Counted from the stretch's first letter, positions 2,494 to 38,236 are shown. The stretch: DNA of 64,000 bases from Ignavibacteriota bacterium (GCA_024636855.1 JAGXGG010000060.1:36126-100125), one strand, 5' to 3'. Notes: generated by a model from the letters alone, not told the origin. Numbers and translations: made by a program.

Positions 2494-3324
2494 TTATTTG
2501 AGGTAAATAAACTTACCAGAACTAACACCATTTTCATTTTCAATTACTAAGAAATAACGGCCTTTTTCTAATTTTGTATTTAGAGTATTTAAGTTTATAG
2601 AATTTTCACCTTTTATTATATTTTGACTTGCGATGTTAGCGATTCTATTACCATTTAAATCATATAAAGTAAATTTGGAGTTGTTTGATTCATTAGAACT
2701 ATTGAAAGTTAATAAATCATTATTCACTACTAAATCAAGTTTTTTAGAGTCTTTTACTATTTCTCTAAATCCATCTTTCACGGCTACAAACTCATCATGA
2801 AGAATGAACCTTGCAATTCTATGTCCTTTATTCTCATCATCCTTATTGCCTTTAAGCTCTTTTCTTCTTTTCGGATGACCATCTTTTTGCTTTAGTTCTT
2901 TGAGTTGGTTTGCAAGAGCTTTTACTGCTTCTTTATTGTTTTCTAATATAGCTTTAAGTTCAGATTTAACATCGTCTCTTTTATCTATATTTGCTTCCAT
3001 CAACTCTTTGATTTTTGTCTTTTTCTCATCTTTTGAAATATCAGAATTTTTAATTTCAGAAATATGATGTTTTAAATCGAGTCTTTCCGATTTTACTTTA
3101 TCTCTCAATAAATTTAATGTATTCAAATCATCTTCGTTTAGTTTCGAATCAAAATCATTTTTTAACTGATTTAGTCGATCAGCTTTCTCTTGTGTCAGAT
3201 TTGGTTTTTCAATTTCACATTTGCCTTTTTTCCCATGGCATTTTTCACCTTTTGCAATAACCGATATGCTTGTAACTAGTGCAAGAGCAATAACTGCAGT
3301 TATAATAAAACTTATTTTTTTCAT
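2494..3324 (-). CDS. Secreted helical Lys/Glu-rich protein with T9SS C-terminal sorting domain
   Basis: Signal peptide MKKISFIITAVIALALVTSISVIA. The central part is a charged helical region with repeated L-x-x-(E/D)-K motifs, reminiscent of Spy/CpxP-type periplasmic proteins. The C-terminal ~80 aa (..FTLYDLNGNRIANI..GRYFLVIENENGVSSGKFIYLK) fits the T9SS CTD pattern. Confidence 0.6.
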   Translation of the reverse strand: MKKISFIITAVIALALVTSISVIAKGEKCHGKKGKCEIEKPNLTQEKADRLNQLKNDFDSKLNEDDLNTLNLLRDKVKSERLDLKHHISEIKNSDISKDEKKTKIKELMEANIDKRDDVKSELKAILENNKEAVKALANQLKELKQKDGHPKRRKELKGNKDDENKGHRIARFILHDEFVAVKDGFREIVKDSKKLDLVVNNDLLTFNSSNESNNSKFTLYDLNGNRIANIASQNIIKGENSINLNTLNTKLEKGRYFLVIENENGVSSGKFIYLK

Positions 3325-8451: not shown

Positions 8452-11400
8452 ATGTTAAAAATATCATCAGTCCTAATTATATTTCTAATATTTTCGAATA
8501 GTTCCTACTGTAAAGATTATATTTCTGAAACCGAAACTAGTTTAACTGTTAGTATAGACAATTTTGAACATTCTAGTAATAATGAATGGATAGGTGTATT
8601 TGCTGTTGATGAGTTTAATATAAATAGATTTAATATTAGAATTTACGAGTCTAAATCGGAAATTAAATCTAATAATTTCTCTTCAGAGCCTAATTATAAT
8701 TTAAGTTATGCTGGTATTCAACGTCGAGCTAAAATTGCTAATTTAAGTGTAGAATTAACAAGAACTGATCCAATTAATAATATTACTTACAGAGTAGATT
8801 CTATTTCTTTTTCATATAGATTCAAGAATAATATATTATTAAACCTATCTTTAGAAAATAACTTCCATATAAATATTTTAAATAAGAAACAATTAGCTTC
8901 ATTGATAATAGATAAGAAAAAATCAAAAGAAAGTAAAGTACAATCCGAATCAGATTGGTTTAATCCGAAATTGGAGTATTATAAATTTTATACTACCAGA
9001 GATGGAGTAGCAAGGATAAACTTATCTGAATTAATAAAGAATAATAGTAATCTAATTGGAAAATCTACAAGTAATATTCATATTAAAAATCGTGGAAATG
9101 AAATAAAGTTCTATTCAACTTCAAATGCTATCCAACATGATGATTATCTTTATATAGTTGCTTCCCATCCTTACGGAGATACTTCATATTTTGATTACTA
9201 CAATGGTAAAGAGCCCTACTTTATCGTATATGATGAGGATACTCAATCAACTCAGTATGATCTTATCGATAATTTACAAACCAATCAATTTCTTGAAAAG
9301 GTAAGTATAAATAATAGATATGAAGAAGACAAAGTATATGGAAATGGGGTAGATGTAACAGAAACTGAAACAGTATTATCTGAGAATTGGTATTTTGATG
9401 AAATCAGAGTTCCTAATGATTTCAATAAACCTTGGGAATATTTTACAGAATTTTCATTGTTTCCAGTTTCTGATTTACAAATTGAATATGAATATGCTAC
9501 TAATATATTTTTTCTACCAAAGCCTGAGGCGGTTTATAATAAGACTTTAACTTATATAAATGATTTTAGAAATGATACTATCAGAAATGTAGGTAGTAAA
9601 ATTATAAATACTAAAATCACTGTTCCAAAAAACAACCTAATACTTGGTGGAAATACTTTAAATCTAAATTCTTATAAAGTTGTTGAAGATTTCGATAAAA
9701 CCAAGTTCAATGGTATTATCGGGTTTGATTATTATAATGTCACAGGAGAAGTATTACCAATCGCTGAGAATAACTACTTTTCATTTATAACAAATAATAA
9801 TCTAGATTCAAAAGTCATCATCAATGGATTTCAAGATAATTTTGTCGTGGCTATCGATACAATTAACAATTTGATTCAATTCCCAAAAACAACTAATTCT
9901 GACTACCTTGTAATGTCAGCAAACAATAAATATTCATCTATATTCTTTAATAAACAATTATTAACAACAAGGAAGTATGGATATGGAATTGTTACTGATT
10001 TAGGAAACAAAAATAACAGCAACTTTTTTGAATCAGAAACTGAGTTTACGAATTTTCTTAATAATATTAATTCTAGCCAAAATGTAGGATTAATTATTAC
10101 ATCTGAAAGCAATATCAGCAATAGTATTAAATCAAAAATAAGTAGTTTATTTGGAGCAAATAATATTAATTCAGCTACAAATAAATATATGTTTGCTAGA
10201 ATTGGCTCACAGAAATATGAATCAAATAATGAAAATATAATTCAAAAAATAGATAATGGTATCTATTATAATGCTGAAGTATTTCTTCCTAAAGGACAAC
10301 CTTCACGAAAAATTGTTAATTCACTTAGTTCAGTTCAAGAATTACAATTAATAAAAGCTAAAATAAAACCGATTGAAGAGACTAGTGTAGATGCGTTCTA
10401 TATATATAATCCTTTATTCGAGCCTACTATAAGCAAATATACTTCATATATATCAAATATAGAGGCAAAGAAGATATTATCTATAGATGTAGAGCAATTA
10501 TATGATACATATGGATATGGAATAGAAAGCCCACATTCTATTAAGAACTTTCTTAAATTAGCTTATGATAATTGGAGTGCATATCCAGAATTTCTAACGT
10601 TAGTTGGGGATGCGACCTGGGATCCTAAAAAACAAAGAGTTGGTAGTTTTGTAGATCAATTAATCCCTGTTTATGGAATTCCATACTCTGATAATTTCTA
10701 CGGTACATTAGAAGGAGATGATTATATACCAGAAATAGTGATTGGGAGAATTCCTGTTAATAATAATCTAGAGTTTGAAAATTATCTAGAGAAAGTTAAG
10801 ACCTACTATGAAGTCCCTGTTAATCCATGGATGAAAAGTATACTTCAAATAGCTGGAGGAGATGATAACCAAAAATTAGGTTTTGCTCAAAATATGAGTG
10901 ATATAAACGAATTCTTTACATCTACTAACATTTGTCCCGATACAATGTCTATAACTAAATCTTCAAGTCAAACTGTATCTGAATCTCAAGCTAATGATAT
11001 AAAAAGAGAAATCAATAAAGGGAAGATGTGGACTAATTTCTTAGGTCATGGTTCGCCTACAGTTATAGATATGTCAGGTTGGGAAGCTCCTAACTTGAAT
11101 AATCAGGGGAAGTTTGGGTTTCTGAATACATTATCTTGTAATACATCTGCTTTTGCAGAGCCTTGGCAACTAAATTCCATAGGTGAAGAATTTGTAAATA
11201 CAAAGAATAAAGGGTTTGTAGGGGTTATTGGAGGGACATCTACAATAGAAGTACAAACAGCTCTGGCTGTTTCATATTCAATGTTCTTCTCCATTATTAA
11301 TGAGGAATTCCCAGAAAGGAATTTAGGTCGTATATACAACTCATATAAAGCACGAAATCCTAAAGCGATTTCTGCATTGAATCAAGTTATCCTACTTGGA

Positions 11401-19652: not shown

Positions 19653-20303
19653 ATGAAGTTTATTTCTTTACTAATTGTATTGTTTTTATTTTTTTCAGAA
19701 TTACTTTTCTCAAGACCAAATAGGGTTTCACAAATCCCTTATGGCGAAAAATTCCAGTGCTCTAGTTGTCATGTAAGTCCAAATGGTGGTGGTCAACGAA
19801 CTCCTTTTGGAGAAACTGTAAATGATAATCTTGGTTCACCCATTTCAACGGCAAATGTGCGTTGGGATTTAATATTCAATATTGATTCTGATGGTGATGG
19901 TTTTACTAATGGGGAAGAGTTACAAGACCCTGATGGACAATGGGCGATTGGACAATCAAATCCTGGAAATCCTGAGTTAGTTTTTCAACCTTGGAATCCA
20001 AACAGTAAACCGACTGTTTCATCAGTTGTAGAAGGCATTGTAAATAACAATGCAACAATTTATCCAGTTCCTTCAAATGGAGTTATAAATTTAGAATATA
20101 TTTCAGATTATTTTGATAATAGCAGATTAGAGTTATTTAATTCTAATGGAAATATAATTCATACTGATAATATGAATACGAAAATAGGTCCAAATAACTG
20201 GACTATAAACTTGAATAATCAATCACTGAATAGTGGTATTTATTATTTAGTACTTAGAAACAAGTATTTTAATATTCGAAAACGAATTGTTTTCACAAAG
20301 TGA
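19653..20303 (+). CDS. Secreted CxxCH-motif protein with thrombospondin-type-3 repeat and T9SS CTD (paralog 1)
   Basis: Signal peptide. CSSCH at residues 36-40 (nt 19758-19772), followed by NGGGQRTPFG. Ca-binding-type repeat DSDGDGFTNGEELQDPDG. C-terminal YPVPSNGVINLEY..GIYYLVLRNKYFNIRKRIVFTK is a T9SS sorting-domain pattern. Confidence 0.65.
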   Translation: MKFISLLIVLFLFFSELLFSRPNRVSQIPYGEKFQCSSCHVSPNGGGQRTPFGETVNDNLGSPISTANVRWDLIFNIDSDGDGFTNGEELQDPDGQWAIGQSNPGNPELVFQPWNPNSKPTVSSVVEGIVNNNATIYPVPSNGVINLEYISDYFDNSRLELFNSNGNIIHTDNMNTKIGPNNWTINLNNQSLNSGIYYLVLRNKYFNIRKRIVFTK

Positions 20304-20508: not shown

Positions 20509-20540
20509 TTGTATCCTTTTATCTTTTTATGTTATATTTG
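20509..20540 (+). promoter_or_regulatory. Bacteroidetes-type sigma-A promoter candidate for paralog 2
   Basis: TTG (20509-20511), a 21-nt spacer, then TATATTTG (20533-20540), which matches the TAnnTTTG -7 element. It lies about 30 nt upstream of the ATG at 20572. Confidence 0.45.
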
Positions 20541-20571
20541 TATATATATTAATCACAAATCAAGGATAATT

Positions 20572-21216
20572 ATGAAGTTTGTTTTTGTACTGTTTTCGAT
20601 CGTATTTTTAAGTTTTATGTCAGAAACACTATTATCTAAAGAACAATGGGTAAACCAAATCCCTAATGGTCAAGTAAATTCTTGTTCAAATTGCCATGTT
20701 AGTGCTAATGGTGGTGGATCTAGGAATGTTTTTGGAAAAGCTGCTCAAAATTCTATGAGCAATGATAAAATAAGATGGGATAAAATTTTCAATTTAGATT
20801 CTGACGGAGATGGATTTACAAATGGGGAAGAGCTACAAGATCCGGATGGCCAATGGGCTATTGGTCAAGCTGAACCTGGAGTTTCAACATTAGTAACTAA
20901 ACCTTGGGATCCAAATAGTAAACCGACTAAATCATCAGTTTTAGAAAATATAGTAAGTGATAATGCAATAATTTATCCTATTCCATCAAATGGAATCGTA
21001 AATTTAGAATACATTTCAGATTATTTTGATACTAGTAGATTAGAGTTATTCAACTCTAATGGTAGAATTATCTATTCTGATAATATGAATACAAATATTG
21101 GTCCAAATAATTGGACTATAAACTTGAATAATCAATCACTGAATAGTGGTGTTTATTATTTGGTACTTAGAAATAAGTATTTTAACATTCGAAAACGTAT
21201 AGTTTTCTCAAAGTAA
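20572..21216 (+). CDS. Secreted CxxCH-motif protein with thrombospondin-type-3 repeat and T9SS CTD (paralog 2)
   Basis: Start moved from 20509 to the ATG at 20572, which gives MKFVFVLFSIVFLSF, a signal peptide parallel to paralog 1. CSNCH at nt 20683-20697, NGGGSRNVFG, DSDGDGFTNGEELQDPDG, and a T9SS CTD ending YYLVLRNKYFNIRKRIVFSK. Confidence 0.65.
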   Translation: MKFVFVLFSIVFLSFMSETLLSKEQWVNQIPNGQVNSCSNCHVSANGGGSRNVFGKAAQNSMSNDKIRWDKIFNLDSDGDGFTNGEELQDPDGQWAIGQAEPGVSTLVTKPWDPNSKPTKSSVLENIVSDNAIIYPIPSNGIVNLEYISDYFDTSRLELFNSNGRIIYSDNMNTNIGPNNWTINLNNQSLNSGVYYLVLRNKYFNIRKRIVFSK

Positions 21217-25241: not shown

Positions 25242-27167
25242 ATGAAATCGTTCAAAATGAACATAGATAATCTAAAAAAAGCTGCACGAATCGACCATAA
25301 AATCGTTTATCGAAAGCTGAAAAATAAACTAACAAACAATTTACTAGATAAATTGTACAGAATGCGTGACAAAAAAGTCTCGACTTATTCCTATGATTAT
25401 ATATCTTACTTTAGAGTTGATTACACTAAGTCACTTAATATTAAAGAATTGTTAGATATAAAATTAGATCAAAGTGAAATAGAGTTATTTTCACAACAAT
25501 GTTTAGAACACAATTTTAGAGTTCTTTCGGATAAATTCGTATCTATAAACTCTACAAAAGATTACACTTCGCTTCAAAATAAATTTAATCCCAAGTTGAT
25601 TCCATTTTCTACACAATGTTTCAATAAAATAAGCGACGAATATAAATTAATTGATTGGCAAAAAGACTATAATTCAAACTATAACTGGGAATTTAAGTGG
25701 TTTAAGGATATAAAATATGGTAATAATTCTAGGAATGATATAAAAGTACCTTGGGAGATTGGTCGCTTACAGCATTTACCTCTATTGGCGATTGAGTCCA
25801 TTAGAGAGGAATCAGATCAATTATTATTAGAGATAAAAAATCAAATTTTCGATTTCATGGCTTCCAACCCTCCAAATTTTGGAGTACAATGGATGACTTC
25901 AATGGATATAGGTATAAGATTAGTTAACCTATTATTTACTTTGTTTACACTCAACAGGAAAGAGAAAGATCAGTTCTTCGATAAAAATGAACTAGAGCTT
26001 ATTGATTCTTATTTATTTGATCATTATTTACATATTAAAGAGAATATAGAATACTCTGAAGGAATGAGAGGTAATCATTATCTTTCTAATTTATGCAGCT
26101 TAATAATATATGTTAGCTTTACTGAAGAGAATGATGGTAAGAATGCACTTCTATCAAAGTACTTAAAACTAATTGAAATTGAATTAGATTACCAATTCCA
26201 TGATGAGGGTACTAATTTCGAAGGGTCAACAAGATATCATATATTCACTCATCAGATGCTCCTAACAGTTGATTTGATTTTAAAAAAATATGGTATAGGA
26301 CAATTAACAAGTAACAAAATGAATCGAATAGCTGGCTTTACTTTATCATTATTTGAATATGAGTTTCCACCTCAAATAGGGGATAATGATTCTGGTTTTT
26401 ATTGGAAAGTTTTAGATTCAGAGAAACTGACTTATAATTCTTTAAAAAGTATAATAAATAAGAGTTACGATGCTCATAATATAATTAATTACAATGAATT
26501 CGGATATGTACAGAATAAATATGATAAGTACGATGTAATATTTAAATGTGGAAAACTCGGTCAGAAAGGAAAAGGGGGTCATGATCATAATGATAATCTT
26601 TCTTATCAATTATATATGGATAAGTACCCATTTATAGTAGATATTGGTTCATTCTGTTATACCTCAAATTTTAAAGAAAGGAATATATATCGTTCTACTC
26701 GCTCACACAATGCTTTATGGATCGAAGGTATTGAGCAAAATGTTTTTTCAGAATTAAGAAATGATGATATGTTTTGGTTAGATACTGATAAATCCAAACC
26801 TGAAATAATTATAAATGAAGCAAATAGATTATCTGGAACTATTGAGTATGGTGGAAAACCATATACTAGAGATATAGAGTTGAATTCTGATGAAATAGTT
26901 ATAACCGATAATTATAACAGTAAATTAGTAAAATATATAAATCTTTATTTATACCCAGACATCAAGATAGAGCATGTGGAAAACAATGTTTATAAGCTGT
27001 GGAATGAGAAAAAAATGGTTTATCTAGATGCAGCAAGTTCAGAATTAATAATAGATAAATATGACTTCTCTCCTAGTTATGGAGTAAAACTACGATCTAC
27101 TAGAATCGTATTGTCTTCAAGAAATGATAAAATAATACACAAATTCAGAGTATCAATTGAGAGTTAA
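25242..27167 (+). CDS. Heparinase II/III-like protein (polysaccharide-modifying/lyase family)
   Basis: 641 aa. Motifs GNHYLSNL, STRYH, GGHDHNDNLSY, DIGSFCYTS and RSTRSHNALWIEG match the alginate-lyase-N plus heparinase II/III-C architecture. Confidence 0.6.
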   Translation: MKSFKMNIDNLKKAARIDHKIVYRKLKNKLTNNLLDKLYRMRDKKVSTYSYDYISYFRVDYTKSLNIKELLDIKLDQSEIELFSQQCLEHNFRVLSDKFVSINSTKDYTSLQNKFNPKLIPFSTQCFNKISDEYKLIDWQKDYNSNYNWEFKWFKDIKYGNNSRNDIKVPWEIGRLQHLPLLAIESIREESDQLLLEIKNQIFDFMASNPPNFGVQWMTSMDIGIRLVNLLFTLFTLNRKEKDQFFDKNELELIDSYLFDHYLHIKENIEYSEGMRGNHYLSNLCSLIIYVSFTEENDGKNALLSKYLKLIEIELDYQFHDEGTNFEGSTRYHIFTHQMLLTVDLILKKYGIGQLTSNKMNRIAGFTLSLFEYEFPPQIGDNDSGFYWKVLDSEKLTYNSLKSIINKSYDAHNIINYNEFGYVQNKYDKYDVIFKCGKLGQKGKGGHDHNDNLSYQLYMDKYPFIVDIGSFCYTSNFKERNIYRSTRSHNALWIEGIEQNVFSELRNDDMFWLDTDKSKPEIIINEANRLSGTIEYGGKPYTRDIELNSDEIVITDNYNSKLVKYINLYLYPDIKIEHVENNVYKLWNEKKMVYLDAASSELIIDKYDFSPSYGVKLRSTRIVLSSRNDKIIHKFRVSIES

Positions 27168-28464
27168 AGATCATTTAGATAAAATCTCTTGGTCATTCGC
27201 AAATAGACTAATATACTTAGTTTGGGGACTAATTAACCTTGTTATAATTGGTCATACTGATCCTTACAACTATGGGCTTTATTTTCTTTTTACCCAACTA
27301 ATTACTTATTTAGCAAGTGTCTCTGATTCTTTTTCATTACAAGGATTGATTCAATTTGGTAAAAAAGAAGAAGATAGACCAAAACTGAATAGTATTGCGA
27401 TAATTTTGCAGTTATTTTTTTTATTCGTTATACCACTAATTTTGTTTCTTTTCAGACATCAATTTGCTGGATTACTTGGTGGTGATGAATTTATCGAAGT
27501 ATCTTATTTTTTACCTCTAATTTCAGTTTTTGTAATCCCAAGGACTTTTGCTTACAAGGTACTCGCACGTGATTTGAATTATAAAAAATCATTCTTTATT
27601 GATCTGATTAACTTTGGAGTAATGACATTAGTTATTGTATATTATATATTTACTAAAGATTTCCTGTATTTCAATGACTTAATCATTTCTTATTTAATTG
27701 GGGGAATATGTTCTGGAATTTATTCAACAATGATTTTAATGAAAAAATCATCATTTGGATTAAATGGGAAAATAACTTTTAAGAAATATTTTAATTTTGC
27801 AATACCTTGGACTATTCATGCAATATTCTATTCTTCAATTAAGTATTTAGATGTTTATGCTATTTCTTTTGCAATAAATACTTCAGATAGTATAAAAATA
27901 GTGGGTCTATATAGTTCAGCAAAAACATTGTTCAAGGTATTCGAACAAATGTCTGATGGTGTTTCAGCCTTAGTTTATCCATCTGCAATTAAAAATATCG
28001 ATCATAAAGATAAAGTCAGAAGTATAATGACGAAAAGTACTTCCTTCATATTAGTACTTAATTTAACTGTATTTATCATACTTCAATTTGGATTTGCTGA
28101 TTTTCTAATATACAATTTCTTACCTATTAAGTTCCATGAAGCAACTAGCTATTTCAAAATCATGCTTTTTGCAGCTTTATTCTTACCATTTGCTTCACTT
28201 AATATGATACTTACAGCAATTAATAAAATAAAATCAGTAGTTTATATTAGTATTATTGCTGCTATTACTTCACTTATATCTATTTTTGTAATTGCACACT
28301 TTACCGAATATCAATTCGTTTCATTAGGAATTGTTATTTATTATATTATAATAGGTTTATCTAGTTTATATATAGTGAAAAAGCAACTTGGATTCCCTAT
28401 AAGTGACATATTTAGAGCTATTCCAGACACTCGAAATTTTATTAATGAAATATTTAAAAAATGA
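27157..28464 (+). CDS. Polysaccharide biosynthesis / oligosaccharide flippase family protein (MOP superfamily)
   Basis: 435 aa, about 12 TM segments, Wzx-like layout. Apparent TTG start overlapping the upstream gene by 11 nt. Confidence 0.55.
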   Translation: MRVKDHLDKISWSFANRLIYLVWGLINLVIIGHTDPYNYGLYFLFTQLITYLASVSDSFSLQGLIQFGKKEEDRPKLNSIAIILQLFFLFVIPLILFLFRHQFAGLLGGDEFIEVSYFLPLISVFVIPRTFAYKVLARDLNYKKSFFIDLINFGVMTLVIVYYIFTKDFLYFNDLIISYLIGGICSGIYSTMILMKKSSFGLNGKITFKKYFNFAIPWTIHAIFYSSIKYLDVYAISFAINTSDSIKIVGLYSSAKTLFKVFEQMSDGVSALVYPSAIKNIDHKDKVRSIMTKSTSFILVLNLTVFIILQFGFADFLIYNFLPIKFHEATSYFKIMLFAALFLPFASLNMILTAINKIKSVVYISIIAAITSLISIFVIAHFTEYQFVSLGIVIYYIIIGLSSLYIVKKQLGFPISDIFRAIPDTRNFINEIFKK

Positions 28465-29546
28465 GAATATTAGACAGATACTTAATAAAGTCATTTATAA
28501 CTACATTGCTATTTTCCTTTGTAGCACTTTATACTATTTTTCTAATAGTAGATATGATAGAGAATTTAGAAGAATTCCTTGATAATGGAATGGGTTTTTT
28601 CAAGATTGCTGAGTATTACTTTTACTTTTTCCCTGAAATATTAAAATTATTAGTTCCTGTTGCAATGTTACTTTCTACTTTATTTACTGTAGGACGACTT
28701 TCAGGTCTGAATGAAATAACAGCTATAAAATCTGGTGGCATCAGTCTATATAGATTTATGGCTCCCTTGATGATATTGAGTATTCTCGTAAGTGGCATAC
28801 ATTTATATTTCAATGGTTGGGTTGTTCCGAAAGCTAATATTGCTAAAAATGATATCGAACGTGAGTATATGAACAAAGGTAGTAGTGTAGGTTCTATATA
28901 CGATTTATACTTTCGAGAGTCTCCGATAGCTAATCTTCATATGAAGTCATATAATAGTAACCAACAGAAAGGTTTTAGCATAGGGCTAGAATACTTTACA
29001 AATGTTGATTCACCTAGATTGAATAAAACTATAGAAGCAAACTCGATATCGTGGGATTCAGTTGCTAATAACTGGATGCTTTATGAAGTAATTATTCGAC
29101 AATTTAATTCAAAGAATATTGAATCTGTAGCTAGAAAGAATTCTATGAGAATTGAACTAACATTAACTCATGAAAAAATAATAGATTTGAAAAGATCAAC
29201 AGATGAAATGACTTTTGATGAATTAAGATCATATTTGAGTTTACTTAAAAATGGTGGTAAAAATGTTGATTTGGAAATGACTGATTACTATGGACAATAT
29301 GCTTTTCCTATTGCAAATATAATAGTAGTTCTATTTGGAGTTCCATTTGCTTCGGTCAAAAAGAAAGGTGGTATTGCTGTACAAATTGGAGCAGCTCTCG
29401 TTATATCTTTTCTTTATCTCATATTTACTAAGGTTAGTCAAGCAATAGTATTAGGAACGGGACTTAACCCAATAATTGCCGGTTGGTTCGCAAATGGCTT
29501 GTTTTTTGTTGTAGGAATTATAAACTTAATTAAAACCAGAACTTAG
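28461..29546 (+). CDS. LptF/LptG family permease (YjgP/YjgQ)
   Basis: 361 aa. N-terminus MRILDRYLIKSFITTLLFSF.. is typical. TM1-3, then a periplasmic beta-jellyroll-sized insert, then TM4-6. ATGA overlap with the upstream gene. Confidence 0.75.
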   Translation: MRILDRYLIKSFITTLLFSFVALYTIFLIVDMIENLEEFLDNGMGFFKIAEYYFYFFPEILKLLVPVAMLLSTLFTVGRLSGLNEITAIKSGGISLYRFMAPLMILSILVSGIHLYFNGWVVPKANIAKNDIEREYMNKGSSVGSIYDLYFRESPIANLHMKSYNSNQQKGFSIGLEYFTNVDSPRLNKTIEANSISWDSVANNWMLYEVIIRQFNSKNIESVARKNSMRIELTLTHEKIIDLKRSTDEMTFDELRSYLSLLKNGGKNVDLEMTDYYGQYAFPIANIIVVLFGVPFASVKKKGGIAVQIGAALVISFLYLIFTKVSQAIVLGTGLNPIIAGWFANGLFFVVGIINLIKTRT

Positions 29547-29549
29547 ATA

Positions 29550-30353
29550 ATGGAAAAGAAAATAGAAACCCTAACATCATTGGATGGTAGAAAATTTTTA
29601 AATGAATTATATCAAAAGCTGAAATATGAGAATGAGCTTTCTGGATTTATGATTCTTATTATTTGTTGGAAAGTATGTGTATTTGAAAAGAATCCCAGCA
29701 AATTTGTCAAAACTGATATTACTATATTGCATAAGCTTGGCACTTGGAAAGGTACTACGTTATGGATAGAAGAGATAGTTAATAGACATTTCTATTCTAC
29801 TATAAACTCATTTGTTTACTTTGGAGCAGCAATTCTACTAGTTCTAATTGGTGTCAGAAAGTTCTCAGATGCTATTTCTTCAGAACTTGTTATAGCCAGT
29901 ATCATATTCGAAGCTAGTATGTTATTCCTTATATTTGTTGTTATGCTTTTTTCTCCTGATGAAGATTTGATAATAGATGAAAAGGAATCCGAAGAAAGTA
30001 TTCTAATTCAAGAAATTGGTGAAATAGGTACTGATTTCGCTACTGCAGTTAGTAAATTAGAAAATGTGAGTTTGGAACTAAAGAATTTCAATAATAGTCA
30101 AGCTGAATTAATAAATAAATTAGCAGAGGCAACTAATAATATATCGAAAGCTGTATCTCCATCTGATGAATTTATTTATAATATAAAACAGACTAATGAA
30201 CAGCTTGCGAACTTGCGAACTCAGATAGAATCTCTAACTGAATCAACAAGAAATATAAGAGAAAAAGACATAAGATTTGAAATAAGAAGAGAAATAGAAA
30301 ATTTGCTAATCGATAGAGTCAGAGACAATGACACAACAGAAAAAAAGGACTAA
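29550..30353 (+). CDS. GldL/PorL-like membrane protein (putative stator-like subunit)
   Basis: 267 aa. TM hairpin FVYFGAAILLVLIGVRKF / IASIIFEASMLFLIFVVMLFSPDEDL with an intramembrane Glu, then a ~130-aa heptad-like cytoplasmic tail (..NISKAVSPSDEF..QIESLTES..). The layout and motifs resemble the recalled GldL/PorL proteins. An ~85-aa N-terminal extension is atypical. Confidence 0.45.
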   Translation: MEKKIETLTSLDGRKFLNELYQKLKYENELSGFMILIICWKVCVFEKNPSKFVKTDITILHKLGTWKGTTLWIEEIVNRHFYSTINSFVYFGAAILLVLIGVRKFSDAISSELVIASIIFEASMLFLIFVVMLFSPDEDLIIDEKESEESILIQEIGEIGTDFATAVSKLENVSLELKNFNNSQAELINKLAEATNNISKAVSPSDEFIYNIKQTNEQLANLRTQIESLTESTRNIREKDIRFEIRREIENLLIDRVRDNDTTEKKD

Positions 30354-31749
30354 AGTAGAGATTTATTTTATTCTCTATCTTGCTGCCTTGATTTTAATAT
30401 TACCCGATAGCAAGAAGAGCAATGATGAATCCGAAGTTTCAACTGACATTGTATTACGTTTAGTTCCTGAAAGAACTGTTCTTAATTTACGTTTATTAAA
30501 AAAAGATGGTAAGAATAATATCATCCGATTTGATTCAGTAAATAAAGTATTCTTTGATGGGGAATATGATAACATTGATTTCACATATACAATTAGTGAT
30601 GTTAACAGGGGTGAAACTGTTGAGATTAATGAATTAAATAACTCTAAAGAACAGTTCCAAATTTCAGAAAATTTTCAAGATAAATTTATTAGTTTCAAAT
30701 GGAATCCCGATTTTAATTTTGACTATAATTCTACTTATTTGGTTAAATTAACAGCAGTAATAGAAAGGAATGGTAAATCTAAGACATCTTCGGCACAATT
30801 TACATTGAATACATTATTCTTGAATCAAGTAATAAATCAAGATTATGCAGACAATCAAATAGATTCTGCTAATTTTGATTTTAATTATTTCAATACTCCA
30901 TTATCTATCCCTACTAACCTTTTTGAAATGGATGTAAAAGTACGTAAAAACCCAATTATAACTTTTGCCGATAATGAGTGGTCGAATTATGTTATAATAT
31001 ATAATATAGCTTCAATTGATGATTTGGTTGGTCCTCCTAAAGTAACTATTAGTGGTGATTCATTGCTAGGTGGGACTGCGAGGTTTGAATCCTCAGAAGG
31101 GAATAATTTTGTATTTTCAGGCATGTCACCAACTTACGATACAATGAAAGTTATTATAAAACTTAGAAGAAAAGCAGATGATTCTGAACTTTCGTTTGAT
31201 TTTATGGTAATTCCATCACCAAGAATTGCCCCAGATATACCAAGTGTTATGTACGTAGGTGAAAATTATAATATGAATACTCGGTTGGAAGCTAGTACAT
31301 CTCTAGATTCATACACTATTATAAAATCAGGGAATAGCTTTGAAAAGCGATATAACAATAGTCAATTCTACTTTACACCAGATGCAAGTATGTTAGAATC
31401 AAATGCAACTTTGACTCGATATGTAGAGAATAAGAGATTAGATAGTTATAATCTTATAATTAAAAGAAAACCAAAACCCGTCGTTGAATATATTGAGTTA
31501 AAAGATAATAGAATAATTATAAAAACAAAGTCTTTTAGTTTACAAAAAAATAAAAATTATGTAGAAACAATTAAAAATAGTGCTAATTTAAAGTTTAATG
31601 ATATTATAGGTAAAAGTTACTTCGATGACGGATACCAATTCCAAACCTTTGAAAGTGAAAGGATTGATAAACCTGTGAATACAATTGAAATTCAATTAAT
31701 CGAAAAGAATGGACAGTATTCTTCAAAGAAAACATTTACTCCTAGATAG
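30328..31749 (+). CDS. Single-pass inner-membrane protein with large periplasmic domain (GldM/PorM-like architecture)
   Basis: 473 aa, overlapping the upstream gene by 26 nt. Basic N-terminus plus one TM helix (MTQQKKRTKVEIYFILYLAALILIL). The remainder is predicted periplasmic and beta-rich. Similarity to GldM is architectural only. Confidence 0.35.
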   Translation: MTQQKKRTKVEIYFILYLAALILILPDSKKSNDESEVSTDIVLRLVPERTVLNLRLLKKDGKNNIIRFDSVNKVFFDGEYDNIDFTYTISDVNRGETVEINELNNSKEQFQISENFQDKFISFKWNPDFNFDYNSTYLVKLTAVIERNGKSKTSSAQFTLNTLFLNQVINQDYADNQIDSANFDFNYFNTPLSIPTNLFEMDVKVRKNPIITFADNEWSNYVIIYNIASIDDLVGPPKVTISGDSLLGGTARFESSEGNNFVFSGMSPTYDTMKVIIKLRRKADDSELSFDFMVIPSPRIAPDIPSVMYVGENYNMNTRLEASTSLDSYTIIKSGNSFEKRYNNSQFYFTPDASMLESNATLTRYVENKRLDSYNLIIKRKPKPVVEYIELKDNRIIIKTKSFSLQKNKNYVETIKNSANLKFNDIIGKSYFDDGYQFQTFESERIDKPVNTIEIQLIEKNGQYSSKKTFTPR

Positions 31750-31796
31750 CTCTGTAACTAAAATGTTAGAATTACGTAATAGCAATTAAAAATATT

Positions 31797-33137
31797 ATGG
31801 CGAGTTTGATGAAGTTTTTATTACTTTTTTTATTTCTACCACTAACACTTTTTCCTCAAATATCAGGTCCAGGTGCTACTTTAACCCTCGATGAATGCAT
31901 AAATATTGCACTAGAGAAAAACTTTGATCTACTAATAAGTAAAGAAAGAATTGATGTTGCAGAAGCGGGTTTAAGAAGTTCATTTGGAGAGTATTTACCT
32001 ACTATCTCTGCAAATATTGGTTATAGCAGACAGCTAAACAATCTTAATCAATCATTAGTATTCGGAGATAGGGTAATCCAGTCCAATCAAAACCCGAATA
32101 GATATAATGCAACAACAGGGGCTAGGTTGACTTTATTCGATGGTTTCAGTCGTGAATATAATTATTCTGCTTCTAAAGACAATTTAGAATCAGTAAAATT
32201 CAATGTAGAGCAACTTAAGAGAGATATAAAGATTCAAGTTTATCGTGCTTTTACAGAAGTGATACGAAATAGTCAAATTGTTAGAATTAGACAAGAAAAT
32301 ATACAATTGGGCAAAAATGATTTAGAAAAAATGAAAGCTCAGTATAAAGCCGGTGTATCAGCTCTCCCACAAATATATTCTCAAGAAGCAGAATTGGGTA
32401 ATTTAGAGTATGACTTATTAACTGCCGAGAATAGCCAATTTACATCAAAAGCAAATTTATTAATGATAATGGGGCTTGCTCCAGATTTAGATATAAATTT
32501 CGATATAAATAGTATTCCTGCCGATGTAACTGATAAGGAAGTTGACAGTTTCTATAACAATCACAAAGATCAGGATGATTTAGTTAAGAAAGCTCTTAAT
32601 AATAGATATGATATAAAGTCTTATGATTTAAGTGAGAATGCTGCGAAAGCAGCAAAGAAGGCTGCTGAAGGCAATTATTATCCAAATGTATCTGCTTCCT
32701 CTGGTTGGTCTTGGGCAAATACAGAGATTAATGATTTTAGTACTAGAGGAAACTTTGCTCTTGGTTTGAACCTAAGTGTTCCAATTTTTAACAATTTCAG
32801 AACAGATCAGCAAGTTCAAAATGCAGAAATGCAACATAAACAAGCAGAAATTGAAAAACAAAGATTAGAAAACCAAGTTAGAAATGAAGTGAAAACAACA
32901 TTATTAGGTTTAGAAATTTCTCAAAAACAACTGAAAGTATCTGACAAATCTTTAGAGTCGTCTAAAAGAAATAATGAAAGTACAAAAGAAAGATATAAAG
33001 TAGGTGCAGCTACGGTTTTAGAACTTCAAACTTCTAATGCTCAATTTATTAATTCTCAGCTTAATAGAGTAAATGCAGTTTACAATTATTTCAAATCTAA
33101 GAAAGAACTATTAAATTCAATTGGTGTCGAACAATAG
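31797..33137 (+). CDS. TolC family outer-membrane efflux protein
   Basis: 446 aa with a signal peptide. LTLDECINIALEKNFDL start and two repeated coiled-coil/beta halves typical of OEP/TolC. Confidence 0.85.
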   Translation: MASLMKFLLLFLFLPLTLFPQISGPGATLTLDECINIALEKNFDLLISKERIDVAEAGLRSSFGEYLPTISANIGYSRQLNNLNQSLVFGDRVIQSNQNPNRYNATTGARLTLFDGFSREYNYSASKDNLESVKFNVEQLKRDIKIQVYRAFTEVIRNSQIVRIRQENIQLGKNDLEKMKAQYKAGVSALPQIYSQEAELGNLEYDLLTAENSQFTSKANLLMIMGLAPDLDINFDINSIPADVTDKEVDSFYNNHKDQDDLVKKALNNRYDIKSYDLSENAAKAAKKAAEGNYYPNVSASSGWSWANTEINDFSTRGNFALGLNLSVPIFNNFRTDQQVQNAEMQHKQAEIEKQRLENQVRNEVKTTLLGLEISQKQLKVSDKSLESSKRNNESTKERYKVGAATVLELQTSNAQFINSQLNRVNAVYNYFKSKKELLNSIGVEQ

Positions 33138-33148
33138 GAATAACAAAT

Positions 33149-33757
33149 ATGAACGATAATTACGATCTTCAAAATGTTCCTCAAGAAGGAACTCAAGAGC
33201 ATGATGACTATATGAAAAGCCAATTTGGTGATGACTACGAATTGGGTTATCGAGTTGGGTTTGGACGTAGATTTGGTGCCTTTATAATTGATTTTATTTT
33301 TAATGCAATTATTGGGACAATTATTATGTTAACTACGGGTGTATTTAGTGAAATAATGACTATGGATAACCCCCTTAATAACATAGAAGCAATTACATTA
33401 ATTATGCAAGACTCTAGCTTAATAGCTGTAGTAATAGGGTTAGTCTATTATTCTACGGAAGTATTACTAGGTGCTTCAATTGGAAAAATGTTACTTGGTA
33501 TTAAAATAGCAAGCTCTGATAGGAGTGAAGCTAGTACATCTCAATTATTAAGTAGATATTTATTAAAGCATTCTAATTCAATATTCTCAGTATTAGGTAT
33601 ATTATTATCAATACATTTCTTTCAAGGACTATCTAGTATAGTCATCGTAATAATTGTAATTGGATTCTTTTTTACACTTGGATCTAAAAGACAAGCTATT
33701 CACGATATGGTTACTAATACCGCAGTTTACTATAAAGATAACATAAAAAATTACTAG
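33149..33757 (+). CDS. RDD family membrane protein
   Basis: 202 aa. RRFGAFIIDFIF, GASIGKMLLGIKI and QAIHDMVTNTAV match the RDD domain pattern. Confidence 0.7.
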   Translation: MNDNYDLQNVPQEGTQEHDDYMKSQFGDDYELGYRVGFGRRFGAFIIDFIFNAIIGTIIMLTTGVFSEIMTMDNPLNNIEAITLIMQDSSLIAVVIGLVYYSTEVLLGASIGKMLLGIKIASSDRSEASTSQLLSRYLLKHSNSIFSVLGILLSIHFFQGLSSIVIVIIVIGFFFTLGSKRQAIHDMVTNTAVYYKDNIKNY

Positions 33758-33765
33758 GAAATAAA

Positions 33766-35046
33766 ATGGCAAGGAAAAAATCAAAAGGAAAAATAATTTT
33801 TCTAATTATTCTAATTATTGCTGCTATTGCTGCTGTTGGATACTTTTTATCAAAAGATAAAACAGTAGATATCCCAGTAAGGACAGATAAAGTTAGCCTT
33901 AGAACTATTACACAAAAAGTAAATGCAATTGGTAATTTACATCCAGAAACTGAAGTAAAAATCTCTTCAGAAGCAAGTGGTGAAATAATTGAATTACCTG
34001 TTATGGAAGGTGATACAGTTAGAAAGGGACAATTACTAGCACGTATAAAGCCTGATTTGATCCAAACTCAATTAGAGCAATACCAAGCTGCATTAGATGC
34101 TTCCAAAACAGATATTGATTATCAAAAATCTTCATTAGAAAGAGCTGAGTATGAGTTCAGTAGAATGAGAGACCTTTATCAGAAAGAATATGTTGCTAAA
34201 CAAGATTTAGATAGAGCTAAAACTACTTTGGACCAAGCGAGAAGTCAATATCAAAACTCTCTAGCAAGATATGACCAATCAAAAGCTTCATTAAAACAAA
34301 TACAACAAAATGCTTCTAGAACTACCATATTGTCACCAATCGATGGTATAGTAACTGCATTAAATATAGAAGTTGGAGAAAAGGTTTTAGGTACAGTTCA
34401 GAATCTAGGTACAGAAATGATGCGTATCTCTGATTTATCTACTATGAATACTAAAGTAGATGTTGATGAAAACGACATAGTTCTAATTAATGTAGGTGAT
34501 ACTGCAAGCATAGAAATTGATGCTTTCCCTGATAAAATATTCAAAGGAATTGTAAAAGAAATTGGTCATTCAGCAAAATTAACTTCTCAATCTTCACAAG
34601 ACCAAGTTACTAACTTTGAAGTGAAAATCAGACTTTTGGATATTGACCCTAAAATGCGACCTGGTATGAGTTGTAATGTGGATATTGAAACTGAGACACA
34701 TAGCAATATAATTGCTGTTCCATTACAGTCAGTTACAGTAAGAGCTGATATTGGTTATTCTGAAGCTAATCAACCCAAAATAAGAAAAGTTAATTCAGAT
34801 CAAAATAAAATGAAAGATAAACCTCAATCAATTGTGTTTGTCGTGAATGGAAACAAAGTTGATGCCGTGAATGTGGAAACAGGGATCAGTGATGAAGGTT
34901 ACATAGAAATTAAAACTGGTCTGAAAAAAGATGAAGAAATAGTAACTGGAAGTTTTAGCGCCATAAGCAAGGAATTAACTGACGGAGCTAAGATTAAGAA
35001 AGAAGATAATAATATGTCTAATGGACGAAGAAGTGGTAGAAAATAA
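33766..35046 (+). CDS. Efflux transporter periplasmic adaptor subunit (HlyD/MacA family)
   Basis: 426 aa. N-terminal anchor, lipoyl-like halves flanking a long coiled-coil hairpin, then beta-barrel and MP domains. Confidence 0.85.
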
Positions 35047-35753
35047 TGCCTAAAACTATAATTGATATTAGAAATATTAGTAAAGTTTATAAAATGGGAA
35101 CTCAATTAGTTCATGCATTACGTGATGTCAGTGTTTCTATTGAAGAAAATGAGTACGTAGCATTAATGGGCCCATCTGGTTCTGGCAAATCTACACTTAT
35201 GAATATTTTAGGTTGTTTAGATACTCCAAGTACTGGTACTTATTTATTTAATGGAACTAATGTTAATGAACTAAATGATAACGAATTAGCAGAAATAAGA
35301 AATAGAGAAATTGGTTTTGTTTTCCAAACTTTTAATTTACTACCAAGAGCATCAGCATTAAAAAATATTGAATTACCTCTAGTTTATTCGGGTATTAAAA
35401 AATATGATCGACTAGATAGGGCAGAGGCAGCTTTAAAAAGTGTTGGATTAGAAGATAGAATGGAACATAAGCCCAATGAACTATCAGGTGGTCAAAGGCA
35501 AAGGGTTGCTATTGCTCGTGCTTTAGTTACATCGCCTTCTATAATCTTAGCTGACGAACCTACAGGAAATCTAGATACCAAAACTGGAAATGACATAATG
35601 AAGCTATTTCAAAATCTATGGGAAAAAGGTAATACAATAATTATAGTTACCCATGAGGAAGAAATTGCTTTACATGCGAAGAGAATTATAAGACTAAGAG
35701 ATGGTCTAGTAGAAACGGATGAAATTAATCAGAATCAAGTTACATTCAACTAA
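35046..35753 (+). CDS. ABC transporter ATP-binding protein (MacB/LolD-type)
   Basis: Walker [10 protein letters not shown], signature LSGGQRQR, Walker B ILADEPT, H-loop VTHE. TAATG stop-start overlap with the adaptor gene. Confidence 0.9.
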
Positions 35754-35756
35754 TTT

Positions 35757-37007
35757 ATGCTTTACGAAATAAAAGAATCAATAATACTATCGTTTGATGC
35801 TCTTAGGTCTAACAAATTAAGAGCTTTTTTAGCATCATTAGGCGTAGTAATTGGTATTTCAATAGTAATTATGATGGGATGGCTATTAGGTGGGTTAGAT
35901 AAAGCAATGCAAGATACTTTTTCTGTTATTGGTACTGACATGCTTTATGTTGACAAATGGGATTGGACTGGTGGAGACAAATGGGATAGGTTAAGAAATA
36001 GGAAAAACGTCACTATGAGTCAGGCGGAACAATTAAAAGAGTTACACGGATCAGCTGAATACGTTATTCCTAACATAAATCAATGGGCAACTACTATTGA
36101 GTTTGGAGGTGAAACTTATGCAGGAATGACTGCGGTAGGAACAACTGCTGAAAATGTTCATACCCCTGTTGGGAATTTGTTATTAGGTAGATTTTTTAAT
36201 GATTTTGAAGAAGAGTATGGATCTAATGTAATCGTAATTGGTTATTTGGTCTATGCAACAATATTCCAAGGGAAAGATCCTATAGGCAAAACTATAAAAC
36301 TAAATGGAAGACCGCTTAGAGTAATTGGGGTTGTTCAGAAAAGAGGGACTATGTTCTTTGATTTTATTGACAGGCAGATGTTCCTACCTTTAAAAAAATA
36401 TGCAGGTATATGGAGTATTGATAAGAGATCAATGTCGATTGGAATAAAAGCAGGTTTAAATAAAGACTTAGATGAGGTAAGAAATGAGACGATTGGTCTC
36501 ATGAGAATTATTAGAAATTTAAAACCAAATGAACCCAATGATTTCTCCGTAAATGAAACTAAAGCATTTGAGAAGTCTATTGCTGATATCAGATTCCAAG
36601 TATATACGGTTGGTATAGGTATGACTCTATTAGCATTTATAGTGGGTATAATTGGAATAATGAATATAATGTTCGTTACTGTAACCGAAAGAACTAAAGA
36701 AATAGGAATAAGAAAGTCACTAGGAGCTAAGAAAAGGTCTATTTGGATACAGTTTTTAGTGGAGTCATCAATTTTGTGCCTATTGGGCGCGTTTCTTTCA
36801 TTAGTAATTTGTTCAATTATAGCATATTTAGCAGCTACTTATCTCCCTACGTATTTCCCGGAAATAGGCTTTTTACTCCCAGTATTACCAACTGAATTAT
36901 TTATTATTGCAGCTATAGTTTCTGTTTTAGTTGGTCTATTAGCTGGTCTTATACCCGCAATTAGAGCTTCCAATTTAGATCCAGTTGAAGCTTTGAGGTT
37001 TGACTAA
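35757..37007 (+). CDS. ABC transporter permease (MacB-PCD + FtsX domain)
   Basis: 416 aa. TM1, a large periplasmic domain, then a C-terminal FtsX 3-TM bundle with [14 protein letters not shown]. Confidence 0.85.
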
Positions 37008-38236
37008 TGAATATATCAGAAAGTATAAGAATGGCTATTGCTTCAATATTTACGCATAAATTAAGATCATTTCTTACTCTATTAAGCGTTGCTATTGGTG
37101 TATTTGCTATAATGGGATCTGGTTCATTGGTATCTTCAATTGATGAGACTGTAGAAACGGAAATGGCGAATTTAGGTGAAAATTCATTCAAAGTTACCCG
37201 TATGCCTTCCGTACAAACAGGGAGAGGTTCATGGAGAAAATATAACAAACGAGAAAAGATAGATTATAAGCAATACTCACAACTTAAGAAAAATATTGGT
37301 GAGATGGCTTATGTTAGTGTAGAGTCAAGTCAAGGCTCTATGACAGTTAAGTATTTAGAATTTCAAACAGATCCAGATGTTAATTTACAGGGTACAAATG
37401 AAGTTTATTTTAATATAAATGACAGAGATGTTCCATTAGGTAGAGCAATAACAGAAGCAGATGTGGAGTTTGATCGAAATGTAGCTGTGATTGGGAATGA
37501 TATAAGAAATAAAATATTTAAAGGTATTAATCCAATTGGTAAAGAAATCAAAATTGGGAATCAAAGATTTGAAGTTATTGGATTGCTAGATGAGAAAGGA
37601 GCTATTTTAGGTCAAAGTCAAGATAATCAAGTCATCATTCCTATTAGTAAATTTAATAAGTATTATAGCAATTGGTGGGAATCATTAGATATTAAAGTCA
37701 AAGCATTTAATAAGGAATCTTTCGTCTATGTACTAGACGAAACTATTGGCGCTCTAAGAACTTTAAGAGGTGATAAACCTTGGGAAGATAATAGCTTTGA
37801 GATAGAAACTAATGAATCTATTACAGAACAGTTTTCTGGATTAACTGGATATTTATCTTATTTTGGATTACTAGCAGGATTTTTTGCGCTAGCGGCTGCA
37901 GGAGTTGGTATTACCAATATAATGCTAGTAGCTATCAAAGAAAGAACTAGAGAAATAGGTTTACGAAAGGCACTAGGTGCTCGTCGTTTTTGGATTACAA
38001 TGCAGTTCCTAGTCGAAACTATGACAATTACACTAATTGGTGGGTTAATTGGTATAATTATGGGGTATCTAATGTCCACAATACTTGGACTCGCTTTGGG
38101 ACTAACAGTAACTATTCCAATTAATTGGATAATTATAAGTCTAACTGTGACTACATTTTTAGGGCTAATATCTGGTTTGTATCCAGCATATAAAGCAGCT
38201 GGTTTAGACCCAATCGAAGCACTAAGATATGAGTAA
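37007..38236 (+). CDS. ABC transporter permease (MacB-PCD + FtsX domain), second copy
   Basis: 409 aa with the same architecture and [19 protein letters not shown] overlap with the previous gene. Confidence 0.85.

Follow-up and report, generated by a model that had tools for sequence, protein, structure and literature searches.

The locus described here raises the question of whether two adjacent, unannotated genes of an Ignavibacteriota bacterium encode an ion-driven inner-membrane motor related to GldLM/PorLM, the motor that powers type IX secretion systems (T9SS) as well as gliding. The genes lie at positions 29550-31749 of a 64,000-nucleotide (nt) stretch of DNA (GCA_024636855.1, JAGXGG010000060.1:36126-100125), which was analysed as a whole and is called the window throughout. 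The first gene encodes a protein with a two-helix membrane hairpin (the hairpin protein) and the second a protein with a single transmembrane (TM) helix (the partner). A preliminary description of this DNA had read them as a GldL/PorL-like and GldM/PorM-like pair, belonging either to a very divergent T9SS motor or to a stator recruited by another envelope-spanning machine. The analysis reported below shows a conserved inner-membrane module of two proteins whose genes are coupled. A probability of roughly 0.5 is assigned to the reading in which the hairpin protein is a very distant GldL/PorL homologue and the pair works like the GldLM/PorLM motor, with the T9SS as its most plausible target. The open reading frames (ORFs) and their parts, as defined by ORF calls, AlphaFold2 (AF2) models and alignment, are as follows.

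29550-30353, + strand: ORF of the hairpin protein, 267 amino acids (aa); soluble N-terminal domain, two-helix hairpin and long helical tail
29550-29789, + strand: N-terminal soluble domain, residues 1-80; a small alpha/beta domain in the AF2 model, without counterpart in canonical GldL
29793-29864, + strand: TM1, residues 82-105; motif N86-x-F-V-Y90-x-G92-A93-A94 ... G101-x-R103-K104
29880-29948, + strand: TM2, residues 111-133, with the membrane-embedded Glu121; followed by a Pro136-x-acidic exit at nt 29955-29966
29991-30344, + strand: cytoplasmic helical tail, residues 148-265; AF2 helices 148-202 and 206-265
30328-31749, + strand: ORF of the partner, 473 aa; one TM helix and four beta-sandwich domains
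30328-30353, + strand: 26-nt overlap of the two ORFs, which suggests translational coupling
30340-30405, + strand: N-terminal motif of the partner; basic cluster K5-K6-R7-x-K9, Glu11, I-Y13-F-I-L-Y17-L-A-A and Pro26 at the helix end
30454-31746, + strand: periplasmic region of the partner; AF2 beta-sandwich domains at about 43-164, 200-297, 300-378 and 385-473; the linker at 168-197 is disordered

Conservation of the gene pair

Both ORFs and their overlap were found exactly where the preliminary description had placed them, and every peptide string quoted there was recovered. Synteny in relatives, which that description had named as a check, was analysed in 86 loci comprising three Kapabacteria genomes, several remote relatives and 80 metagenome contigs, and it upheld the pair. 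The partner is the first gene 3' of the hairpin gene in 53 of the 59 loci with enough sequence, mostly with an overlap of 4-32 nt at the junction, and the pairing is retained in relatives at ~40% identity as well as in remote ones. An LptF/G-type permease lies directly 5' of the hairpin gene in 29 of 63 loci. A TolC/MacAB efflux block, which follows the pair in the window, does so in only 12 of 48 loci; it is kept in loci L002, L003 and L170 and in several metagenome loci at ~40-65% identity, and elsewhere the pair has unrelated housekeeping genes as neighbours, stands alone or is duplicated in tandem. Since the partner follows in nearly all loci but TolC in few, the two genes make up an old module whose members co-evolve, and the efflux genes are a lineage-specific neighbourhood that is not counted as part of it. 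The suggestion that the TolC/MacAB surroundings might be conserved along with the pair therefore failed, while the observation that no gldK- or gldN-like genes flank it held in the window and in all 86 related loci.

Tandem paralogous pairs of a hairpin and a bitopic gene were found in L004 (3095-8189), from a metagenome-assembled genome (MAG) labelled 'Chlorobi', and in L088 (8941-15715), from a Fibrobacter-like MAG. The second hairpin protein of each tandem is of a remote type.

The hairpin protein

The hairpin protein contains the segments FVYFGAAILLVLIGVRKF (residues 88-105) and IASIIFEASMLFLIFVVMLFSPDEDL (residues 115-140). Its AF2 model has a mean predicted local distance difference test (pLDDT) score of 79, and of ~90 across the hairpin, whose two helices are joined by a five-residue loop. 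The two-helix hairpin with a glutamate in its second helix and a long helical tail, first described by eye from the sequence, was reproduced in the model, with Glu121 (nt 29910-29912) inside TM2. From this arrangement we infer a topology with cytoplasmic N- and C-termini and a short periplasmic loop. It had also been cautioned that the N-terminal extension, then put at ~85 aa, might hold a third TM segment. Such a segment is ruled out by the family-averaged 19-residue hydropathy, whose maximum is only ~0.5 in the extension of ~80 aa, against 1.9 and 2.5 in TM1 and TM2; AF2 folds this extension as a soluble alpha/beta domain.

With ~200 homologues of the hairpin protein, 42 of the partner and invariant motif residues in 181 sequences, the feature far exceeds what chance would produce. 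Among 181 non-identical homologues, Y90, A93, P136 and E75 are present in all 181 and G92, E121 and R79 in 180, so that the hairpin glutamate, whose conservation had been proposed as a test, is retained almost throughout. Invariant residues of the N-terminal domain are G13-R14, W40, E75 and N78-R79. The tail carries a conserved SP(N)P...TN motif in which P204, T215 and N216 are conserved.

The tail is also weakly matched by the coiled-coil tails of ZorA from Zorya (PADLOC, 17 bits), by signalling domains of methyl-accepting chemotaxis proteins (MCPs) and by chlamydial UPF0242. Several homologues are labelled 'methyl-accepting chemotaxis protein' by the Joint Genome Institute (JGI), probably as a coiled-coil artefact. 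Identity as a defence system was considered and rejected, as the ZorA matches are 17-bit coiled-coil noise on the tail.

Comparison of the hairpin with GldL

GldL was represented by the hairpins of five species taken from the PDB, by 120 sequences annotated as GldL_N, and by full-length GldL and GldM from Flavobacteriaceae loci. Profile-profile alignment with hhalign gave a probability of 16% (P = 0.0016) for the window family against the five PDB hairpins. With a 117-sequence hairpin superfamily and a deeper GldL profile, the probability was 81% (P = 1.2e-5) with GldL as the query and 66% (P = 5.6e-5) in the reverse direction. Three subfamilies of the hairpin protein, aligned to GldL separately, reached 32-65% each in an unchanged register. 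In that register N86/F88/Y90-x-G92-A93-A94 falls on N10/F11/Y13-G-x-G16-A17-A18 of GldL, R103/K104 falls near K27, E121 on E49, and P136-x-E-D on P60-V-E-D. The pairing of E121 with E49 recurred in every run, with one four-residue insertion after the glutamate; the spacing from Glu to the conserved Pro is accordingly 15 residues in the hairpin protein and 11 in GldL.

These scores were compared with two nulls and a decoy set. Reversed profiles scored ~10, with probabilities of 0.1-0.2%. Column permutation within segments, carried out 150 times, gave a mean of 14.9 (standard deviation 4.0, maximum 31.6), and none of the 150 reached the real score of 32.4. Among 1,460 decoy proteins rich in membrane proteins, GldL accounted for 19 of the 25 matches ranked next after the family's own members when the hairpin hidden Markov model (HMM) was used, and the hairpin family for all 20 matches ranked next after the GldL block when the GldL_N HMM was used. 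The two are thus reciprocal best non-self families in this set. A sequence-profile search of the PDB found GldL (7sax_C, E = 0.023) through the coiled-coil tail only, and a Foldseek search of the structural model ranked PorL (7sat_D) 11th with E = 5.6, a type of search that is uninformative for simple helical hairpins.

The motor function of GldL requires both E49, which is invariant, and Y13, which is highly conserved (10.1101/2020.05.11.089193); the invariant loop residues K27 and H30 also matter (10.1101/2020.05.11.089193; 10.1101/2022.01.28.478170). Two of these four residues map to invariant positions of the hairpin protein and one to a conserved basic position, R103/K104 aligning near K27, while the hairpin family has no equivalent of His30. 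As judged from these profile comparisons, remote homology of the hairpin to GldL is probable (about two in three) and unproven.

The partner

The partner begins MTQQKKRTKVEIYFILYLAALILIL. In its AF2 model (mean pLDDT 79), a single TM helix is accompanied by four beta-sandwich domains and a disordered linker. The TM helix occupies approximately residues 11-25 after a basic N-terminus and is followed by ~430 aa of beta-rich sequence; the model and the alignment of N-termini agree on this layout, which is the one originally described. The suspicion that the partner would be missing a helical first periplasmic domain was likewise well founded, since AF2 places a beta-sandwich at residues 43-164. 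The partner is an N-in bitopic protein, and its four-domain periplasmic arm has, in principle, the length needed to extend towards the outer membrane.

Among 57 distinct partner N-termini, an acidic residue precedes I-Y-F-x-L-Y-L in all 57 (56 Glu, 1 Asp; Glu11, nt 30358-30360, in the window), Pro is found at +15 in 55, and Arg or Lys at -4 in 50. The TM helix thereby carries two invariant tyrosines within the motif [E/D]-I-Y-F-x-L-Y-L, the sole segment that is recognisable in the remote partners of L004 and L088. The second-type partners of these two loci start K-K-Y-Q-V-Y-F-F-L-Y-L-A-V-I-C-E-L-L, with a Glu within the TM helix and a helical stretch next. The basic cluster and Y13/Y17 of the window partner are in place, and no significant alignment fixes their equivalence to Arg9/Tyr17 of GldM.

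Among the 50 matches listed for the partner, Foldseek gave only generic tandem arrays of immunoglobulin (Ig), cadherin and FN3 type, and Ig arrays do not discriminate between families. A role as an LptC/LptA-like bridge, prompted by the adjacent LptG-type gene, was ruled out because the folds are Ig-like and no Lpt match was found.

T9SS-type proteins in the window and in relatives

The window also encodes proteins of T9SS type, given below with their family matches; CTD denotes the C-terminal domain of T9SS cargo.

8452-13956, + strand: PorU-related C25 sortase-like protein, 1834 aa (Pfam Peptidase_C25, 5e-60)
2494-3324, - strand: protein with a type A CTD, T9SS cargo (TIGR04183)
19653-20303 and 20509-21216, + strand: two adjacent, paralogue-like proteins with type A CTDs, T9SS cargo (TIGR04183)

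The C25 protein additionally matches the NCBIfam models PorU2 N-terminal (1.1e-71) and T9SS_sortase (1.7e-48), both below the equivalog cutoffs, and may be an unusually long PorU-type sortase. It carries an ILEI-like domain at residues 1281-1393, and the 443-aa ORF just 5' of it (7006-8337) has no family match. With the TIGR04183 cutoff at 23 bits, the three cargo proteins exceed it at 35.0, 29.7 and 29.3 bits. All three CTD proteins are small (216-276 aa), and the C-termini of the two adjacent ones resemble those of T9SS-dependent M36 peptidases. CTD proteins are also present in the loci of relatives. With CTD cargo and a PorU-like sortase in the window and CTD proteins in relatives' loci, these lineages appear to use T9SS-type secretion. 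No PorK/N ring, SprA/Sov or PorV gene was seen within the 64-kb window or the flanks of up to 20 kb in relatives, and a canonical gldLMN cluster is readily recognised by Pfam where one is present.

Enzymes of F. succinogenes have been reported with T9SS-type CTDs, with no motor described (PMC6851124); beyond these, nothing relevant was found in the literature on T9SS motors in Ignavibacteria, Kapabacteria or Fibrobacter.

A 2.25-Mb contig (L169; ENA ERZ1714335 scaffold_580) carries a canonical gldL-gldM-gldN cluster broken up into numerous short ORFs. The contig has the look of a long-read assembly rich in frameshifts, and it has no relation to the organism of the window. Its GldL_N protein was therefore rejected as a case of co-occurrence, since it belongs to an unrelated genome with canonical gldLMN.

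Distribution of the families

Approximately 200 homologues of the hairpin protein and 42 of the partner (clusters at 90% identity) were collected, all of them unnamed and from MAGs of Kapabacteria/Ignavibacteria type. Both families are confined to Kapabacteria, Ignavibacteria, "Chlorobi" MAGs and Fibrobacter-like organisms; the L088 organism carries a Fib_succ_major protein. An HMM search of 1.84 billion representative proteins, using a profile of the N-terminal domain plus the hairpin, returned 95 proteins at E <= 1e-3, including a remote tail that matches the hairpin alone. The remote hairpins share the core Y-x-N-N-[VI]-Q-x-F-x-Y-x-G-A-A ... G-[LV]-R-G ... [LI]-E-[AF]-x-x-L ... Y-[TS]-P-E-[ED], and those with a named source come from Kapabacteria, "Chlorobi" and Bacteroidota MAGs.

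A wider hairpin superfamily without annotation (P0203-P0255; L005, L006) has in common the core Y-x-G-A-A, buried Glu and P-E-E. Variants of 320-440 aa within it have two additional N-terminal TM segments and a Q-K-I-E-R-E-I motif, and at least one of them, in L005, is a stand-alone four-TM variant with no bitopic partner.

Pfam, NCBIfam and PADLOC gave no meaningful match for either protein of the pair, and what they did return was UPF0242 below threshold and noise from coiled coils such as MCP and ZorA tails; the family is unannotated in these three libraries and in the literature searched. The best match in a curated library was the Pfam UPF0242 N-terminus (PF06785; 26.1 bits against a gathering threshold of 33.5, E = 1e-5), which aligns residues 79-237 of the hairpin protein with profile positions 1-163 and so spans hairpin and coiled coil. 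Precomputed PF06785 matches exist for several homologues.

Neighbouring genes

The pair lies in a co-directional, densely packed run of genes (25242-38236) with the order heparinase II/III-like, flippase-like, LptF/G-family permease, hairpin protein and partner, TolC-type outer-membrane efflux protein (OEP), RDD protein, MacA-like adaptor, ABC ATPase and two MacB/FtsX permeases. The guanine-cytosine content of the pair's region is ~30%. The neighbours were assigned by Pfam and NCBIfam matches as follows.

28461-29546, + strand: LptF/G-family permease, directly 5' of the hairpin gene (Pfam LptF_LptG, 2.3e-75); the only recurrent neighbour
31797-38236, + strand: downstream efflux block, made up of the five entries below
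31797-33137, + strand: TolC-type OEP
33149-33757, + strand: RDD protein
33766-35046, + strand: MacA-like adaptor
35046-35753, + strand: ABC ATPase
35757-37007 and 37007-38236, + strand: two MacB/FtsX permeases

These assignments bear out the neighbours named in the preliminary description, from the lptF/G-like gene to the two FtsX permeases, and their tight packing. Its term "LptFG" needs correction, as a single lptF/G-like gene adjoins the pair in the window and not an LptF/LptG couple. The stop codon of this permease lies 4 nt ahead of the start of the hairpin gene, and the protein scores 207.7 bits against NCBIfam LptG, below the cutoff of 240. A scan for promoters and terminators gave chance-level results that are uninformative on operon structure.

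Ahead of the pair (25242-29546, + strand) lie the genes of the heparinase II/III-like protein, of a multi-TM protein of 435 aa, whose L002 counterpart matches Polysacc_synt, and of the LptF/G-type permease. This upstream block, ending in the pair, is kept in many relatives and more often than the TolC/MacAB block. In every relative with the efflux block, the RDD protein lies between the TolC-type gene and the MacA-like adaptor, and this constant position suggests that it is an accessory subunit of the MacAB-TolC-type system.

Proposed mechanism and alternative explanations

In the mechanism considered here, the TM helices of a partner dimer would lie inside a ring of hairpin subunits, as in GldLM. 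Proton flow through the buried Glu121/Tyr90 site and the charged and aromatic TM residues of the partner would set the partner in motion, by conformational change or rotation, and this motion would transmit energy through the periplasm to a process at the outer membrane. The T9SS is the most plausible target, given the organism's T9SS cargo and PorU-like sortase; the adjoining ATP-driven MacAB-TolC and Lpt genes are less plausible.

Several results weigh against a GldLM-type motor. The check with GldL and GldM family models foreseen in the preliminary description found neither protein: Pfam PF22827 (GldL_N) and the NCBIfam GldL model gave no match to the hairpin protein at E <= 1, nor to the isolated hairpin at E <= 10, under conditions in which authentic GldL/PorL hairpins score 1e-27 to 1e-29, and none of the remote hairpin proteins from the 1.84-billion-protein search is annotated with Pfam GldL_N. 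The hhalign probabilities for the hairpin against GldL_N stay under 90%, where 90-95% is the usual standard, and the highest of the 150 permuted scores comes close to the real one. The tails of the hairpin protein and GldL are co-linear without significance in hhalign (P = 0.057), and the insertion in TM2 puts Glu121 about one turn farther from the cytoplasmic face than E49 of GldL. For the partner, the curated GldM models of Pfam and NCBIfam gave no match, PDB sequences gave none at E <= 10, and hhalign was not significant either for the whole protein against 61 full-length GldM sequences (P = 0.069) or for the N-terminal/TM region (P = 0.1, with no reciprocal ranking). No GldM/PorM was among the 50 Foldseek matches listed, and where GldM has a helical first periplasmic domain (D1), the partner has a beta-sandwich. 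Finally, gldK, gldN, sprA and porV do not recur near the pair in the window or the 86 loci.

The two halves of the original proposal have therefore fared differently. For the hairpin protein, the GldL-like reading is moderately supported by the profile-profile register, the scores beyond both nulls, the reciprocal ranking and the mapping of Tyr13 and Glu49, and is left without support by the silent curated models. For the partner, the GldM-like reading survives in architecture and coupled gene order and fails in all sequence and fold tests; the partner resembles GldM in those two respects only, with no detectable homology. Of the two options in the preliminary description, a very divergent T9SS motor apart from its ring genes is still a plausible one, the organism having T9SS cargo and a PorU-like sortase.

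The same failures would be in keeping with the pair being a non-motor inner-membrane complex, such as a scaffold, anchor or sensor, whose likeness to GldL arose by convergence on small-residue packing and a buried glutamate. The missing curated matches for both proteins, the partner's want of GldM homology, hhalign probabilities of only 66-82% and the permuted profile at 31.6 against 32.4 all suit this explanation, as do the uninformative Foldseek search with the hairpin protein and the partnerless four-TM variants of L005, which imply that the hairpin is used in several contexts. We nevertheless regard it as unlikely. Three independent subfamilies give an identical register, the ranking is reciprocal, and the two most function-critical residues of GldL coincide with invariant positions. 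The architecture is co-linear as well, from the hairpin through the acidic exit and helical tail to a coupled bitopic partner with invariant polar TM residues, and an invariant buried glutamate would be costly to keep unless functional. Another explanation accepts a GldLM-like motor and makes it a paralogue beside a canonical gldKLMN elsewhere in the genome, powering a different outer-membrane process. The pair has no linked gene for a T9SS ring or translocon, the tandem pairs of L004 and L088 show that the module diversifies, and canonical gldLMN is so easily seen by Pfam that its absence near the pair is real. Named family members, on the other hand, were seen only in non-Bacteroidia lineages of the Fibrobacteres-Chlorobi-Bacteroidetes (FCB) group, as would be expected of an orthologous divergent motor, and a paralogue is in our judgement distinctly improbable.

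Recruitment of a GldLM-type stator to energise or bridge the neighbouring LptF/G permease, MacAB-TolC or both was the other option raised in the preliminary description. The co-directional, tightly packed genes, the LptG-pair-TolC-RDD-MacA-MacB block kept in L002, L003 and L170, and the LptF/G-type gene directly upstream in 29 of 63 loci are in keeping with it. Synteny speaks against it, since TolC/MacAB follows the pair in 12 of 48 loci only and other lineages have housekeeping neighbours or tandem duplicates. The periplasmic domains of the partner are Ig-like and not LptC/LptA-type jellyrolls. MacAB-TolC and LptB2FG are moreover ATP-driven, and we know of no need of theirs for a stator powered by the proton motive force. 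Recruitment thus seems very unlikely.

With these explanations set against it, the GldLM-like motor reading is retained at about even odds. A more far-reaching form of it would make the pair a deeply divergent, unrecognised GldLM-type 5:2 ion-driven branch and the missing energiser of the T9SS, or of another outer-membrane process, in lineages of Kapabacteria, Ignavibacteria, Chlorobi and Fibrobacter type. In that form a wider superfamily, which takes in tandem paralogous pairs and stand-alone variants with four TM segments and which no curated library contains at present, would be defined by the hairpin. We put this forward tentatively and would sooner doubt than adopt it.

Significance and comparison with known systems

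The known families of ion-driven membrane motors are the F/V-ATPases, the MotAB-type 5:2 stators (including ExbBD, TolQR and ZorAB) and GldLM, and to our knowledge GldLM is regarded as specific to Bacteroidetes. If the motor reading is true, the pair hints at an unrecognised branch of the T9SS motor family in relatives of Bacteroidetes. The GldLM motor class would then be widened by a remote GldL-like hairpin that is joined to another kind of periplasm-spanning partner and is widespread in sister lineages with T9SS-type cargo, and the essentials of the class would prove to be a buried Glu, a Tyr in TM1 and coupling to a bitopic partner. The pair would also provide a concrete candidate for powering the secretion of CTD cargo in Fibrobacter-type cellulose degraders and in Kapabacteria, for which we know of no motor that has been described. 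If the likeness is convergent, the family would still be a widely conserved, wholly unannotated envelope module in need of a name.

Among characterised and uncharacterised families, UPF0242 offers a match to chlamydial proteins that are themselves without assigned function, so it adds no mechanism. MotAB, ExbBD, TolQR and ZorAB resemble the pair in combining a multi-copy polytopic subunit with a bitopic subunit that reaches into the periplasm. An acidic residue near the cytoplasmic end of the TM helix is conserved in their bitopic subunits (MotB Asp32, ExbD Asp25, TolR Asp23), and Glu11 of the partner recalls it. The hairpin protein differs from this group in having two TM helices instead of three or four, with no match to the MotA_ExbB/TolQ family in Pfam, and the partner in having no OmpA-like or TonB-type domain.

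GldM/PorM (PF12081, PF21601, PF21602, PF12080), the two-copy, periplasm-spanning rotor, is like the partner in its N-in bitopic topology, basic N-terminus, TM tyrosines, multiple periplasmic beta-sandwich domains, similar length (~515 aa versus 473 aa) and gene position immediately after the hairpin gene. It differs in its periplasmic part, where GldM has the helical D1 and three Ig-like domains and the partner four beta-sandwich domains, and in having no counterpart of the partner's invariant acidic residue at the cytoplasmic TM end. The second-type partners of L004 and L088 are nearer to the helical D1 architecture than the window partner is.

GldL/PorL (PF22827) is the five-copy stator subunit of the T9SS/gliding motor (PDB 6ys8, 7sat, 7sau, 7sax, 7saz). 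The hairpin protein shares with it a two-helix N-in/C-in hairpin with a short basic periplasmic loop, Tyr-x-Gly-Ala-Ala in the first helix and a buried Glu in the second, an exit of the form Pro-x-acidic, a cytoplasmic tail that is long and helical, and a gene directly 5' of that of a coupled bitopic partner. It is set apart by its additional conserved domain of ~80 aa at the N-terminus, the four-residue insertion in TM2 and the lack of linked gldK/gldN. Compared with canonical GldLM as a whole, the pair has this additional domain, one more helical turn in TM2, a beta-sandwich replacing D1, and no linked gldK/gldN. As the curated membership tests failed, the pair is not classed as a member of GldL/GldM; it is probably a variant of the GldLM-type module, with which it has the hairpin residues and the two-gene logic in common.

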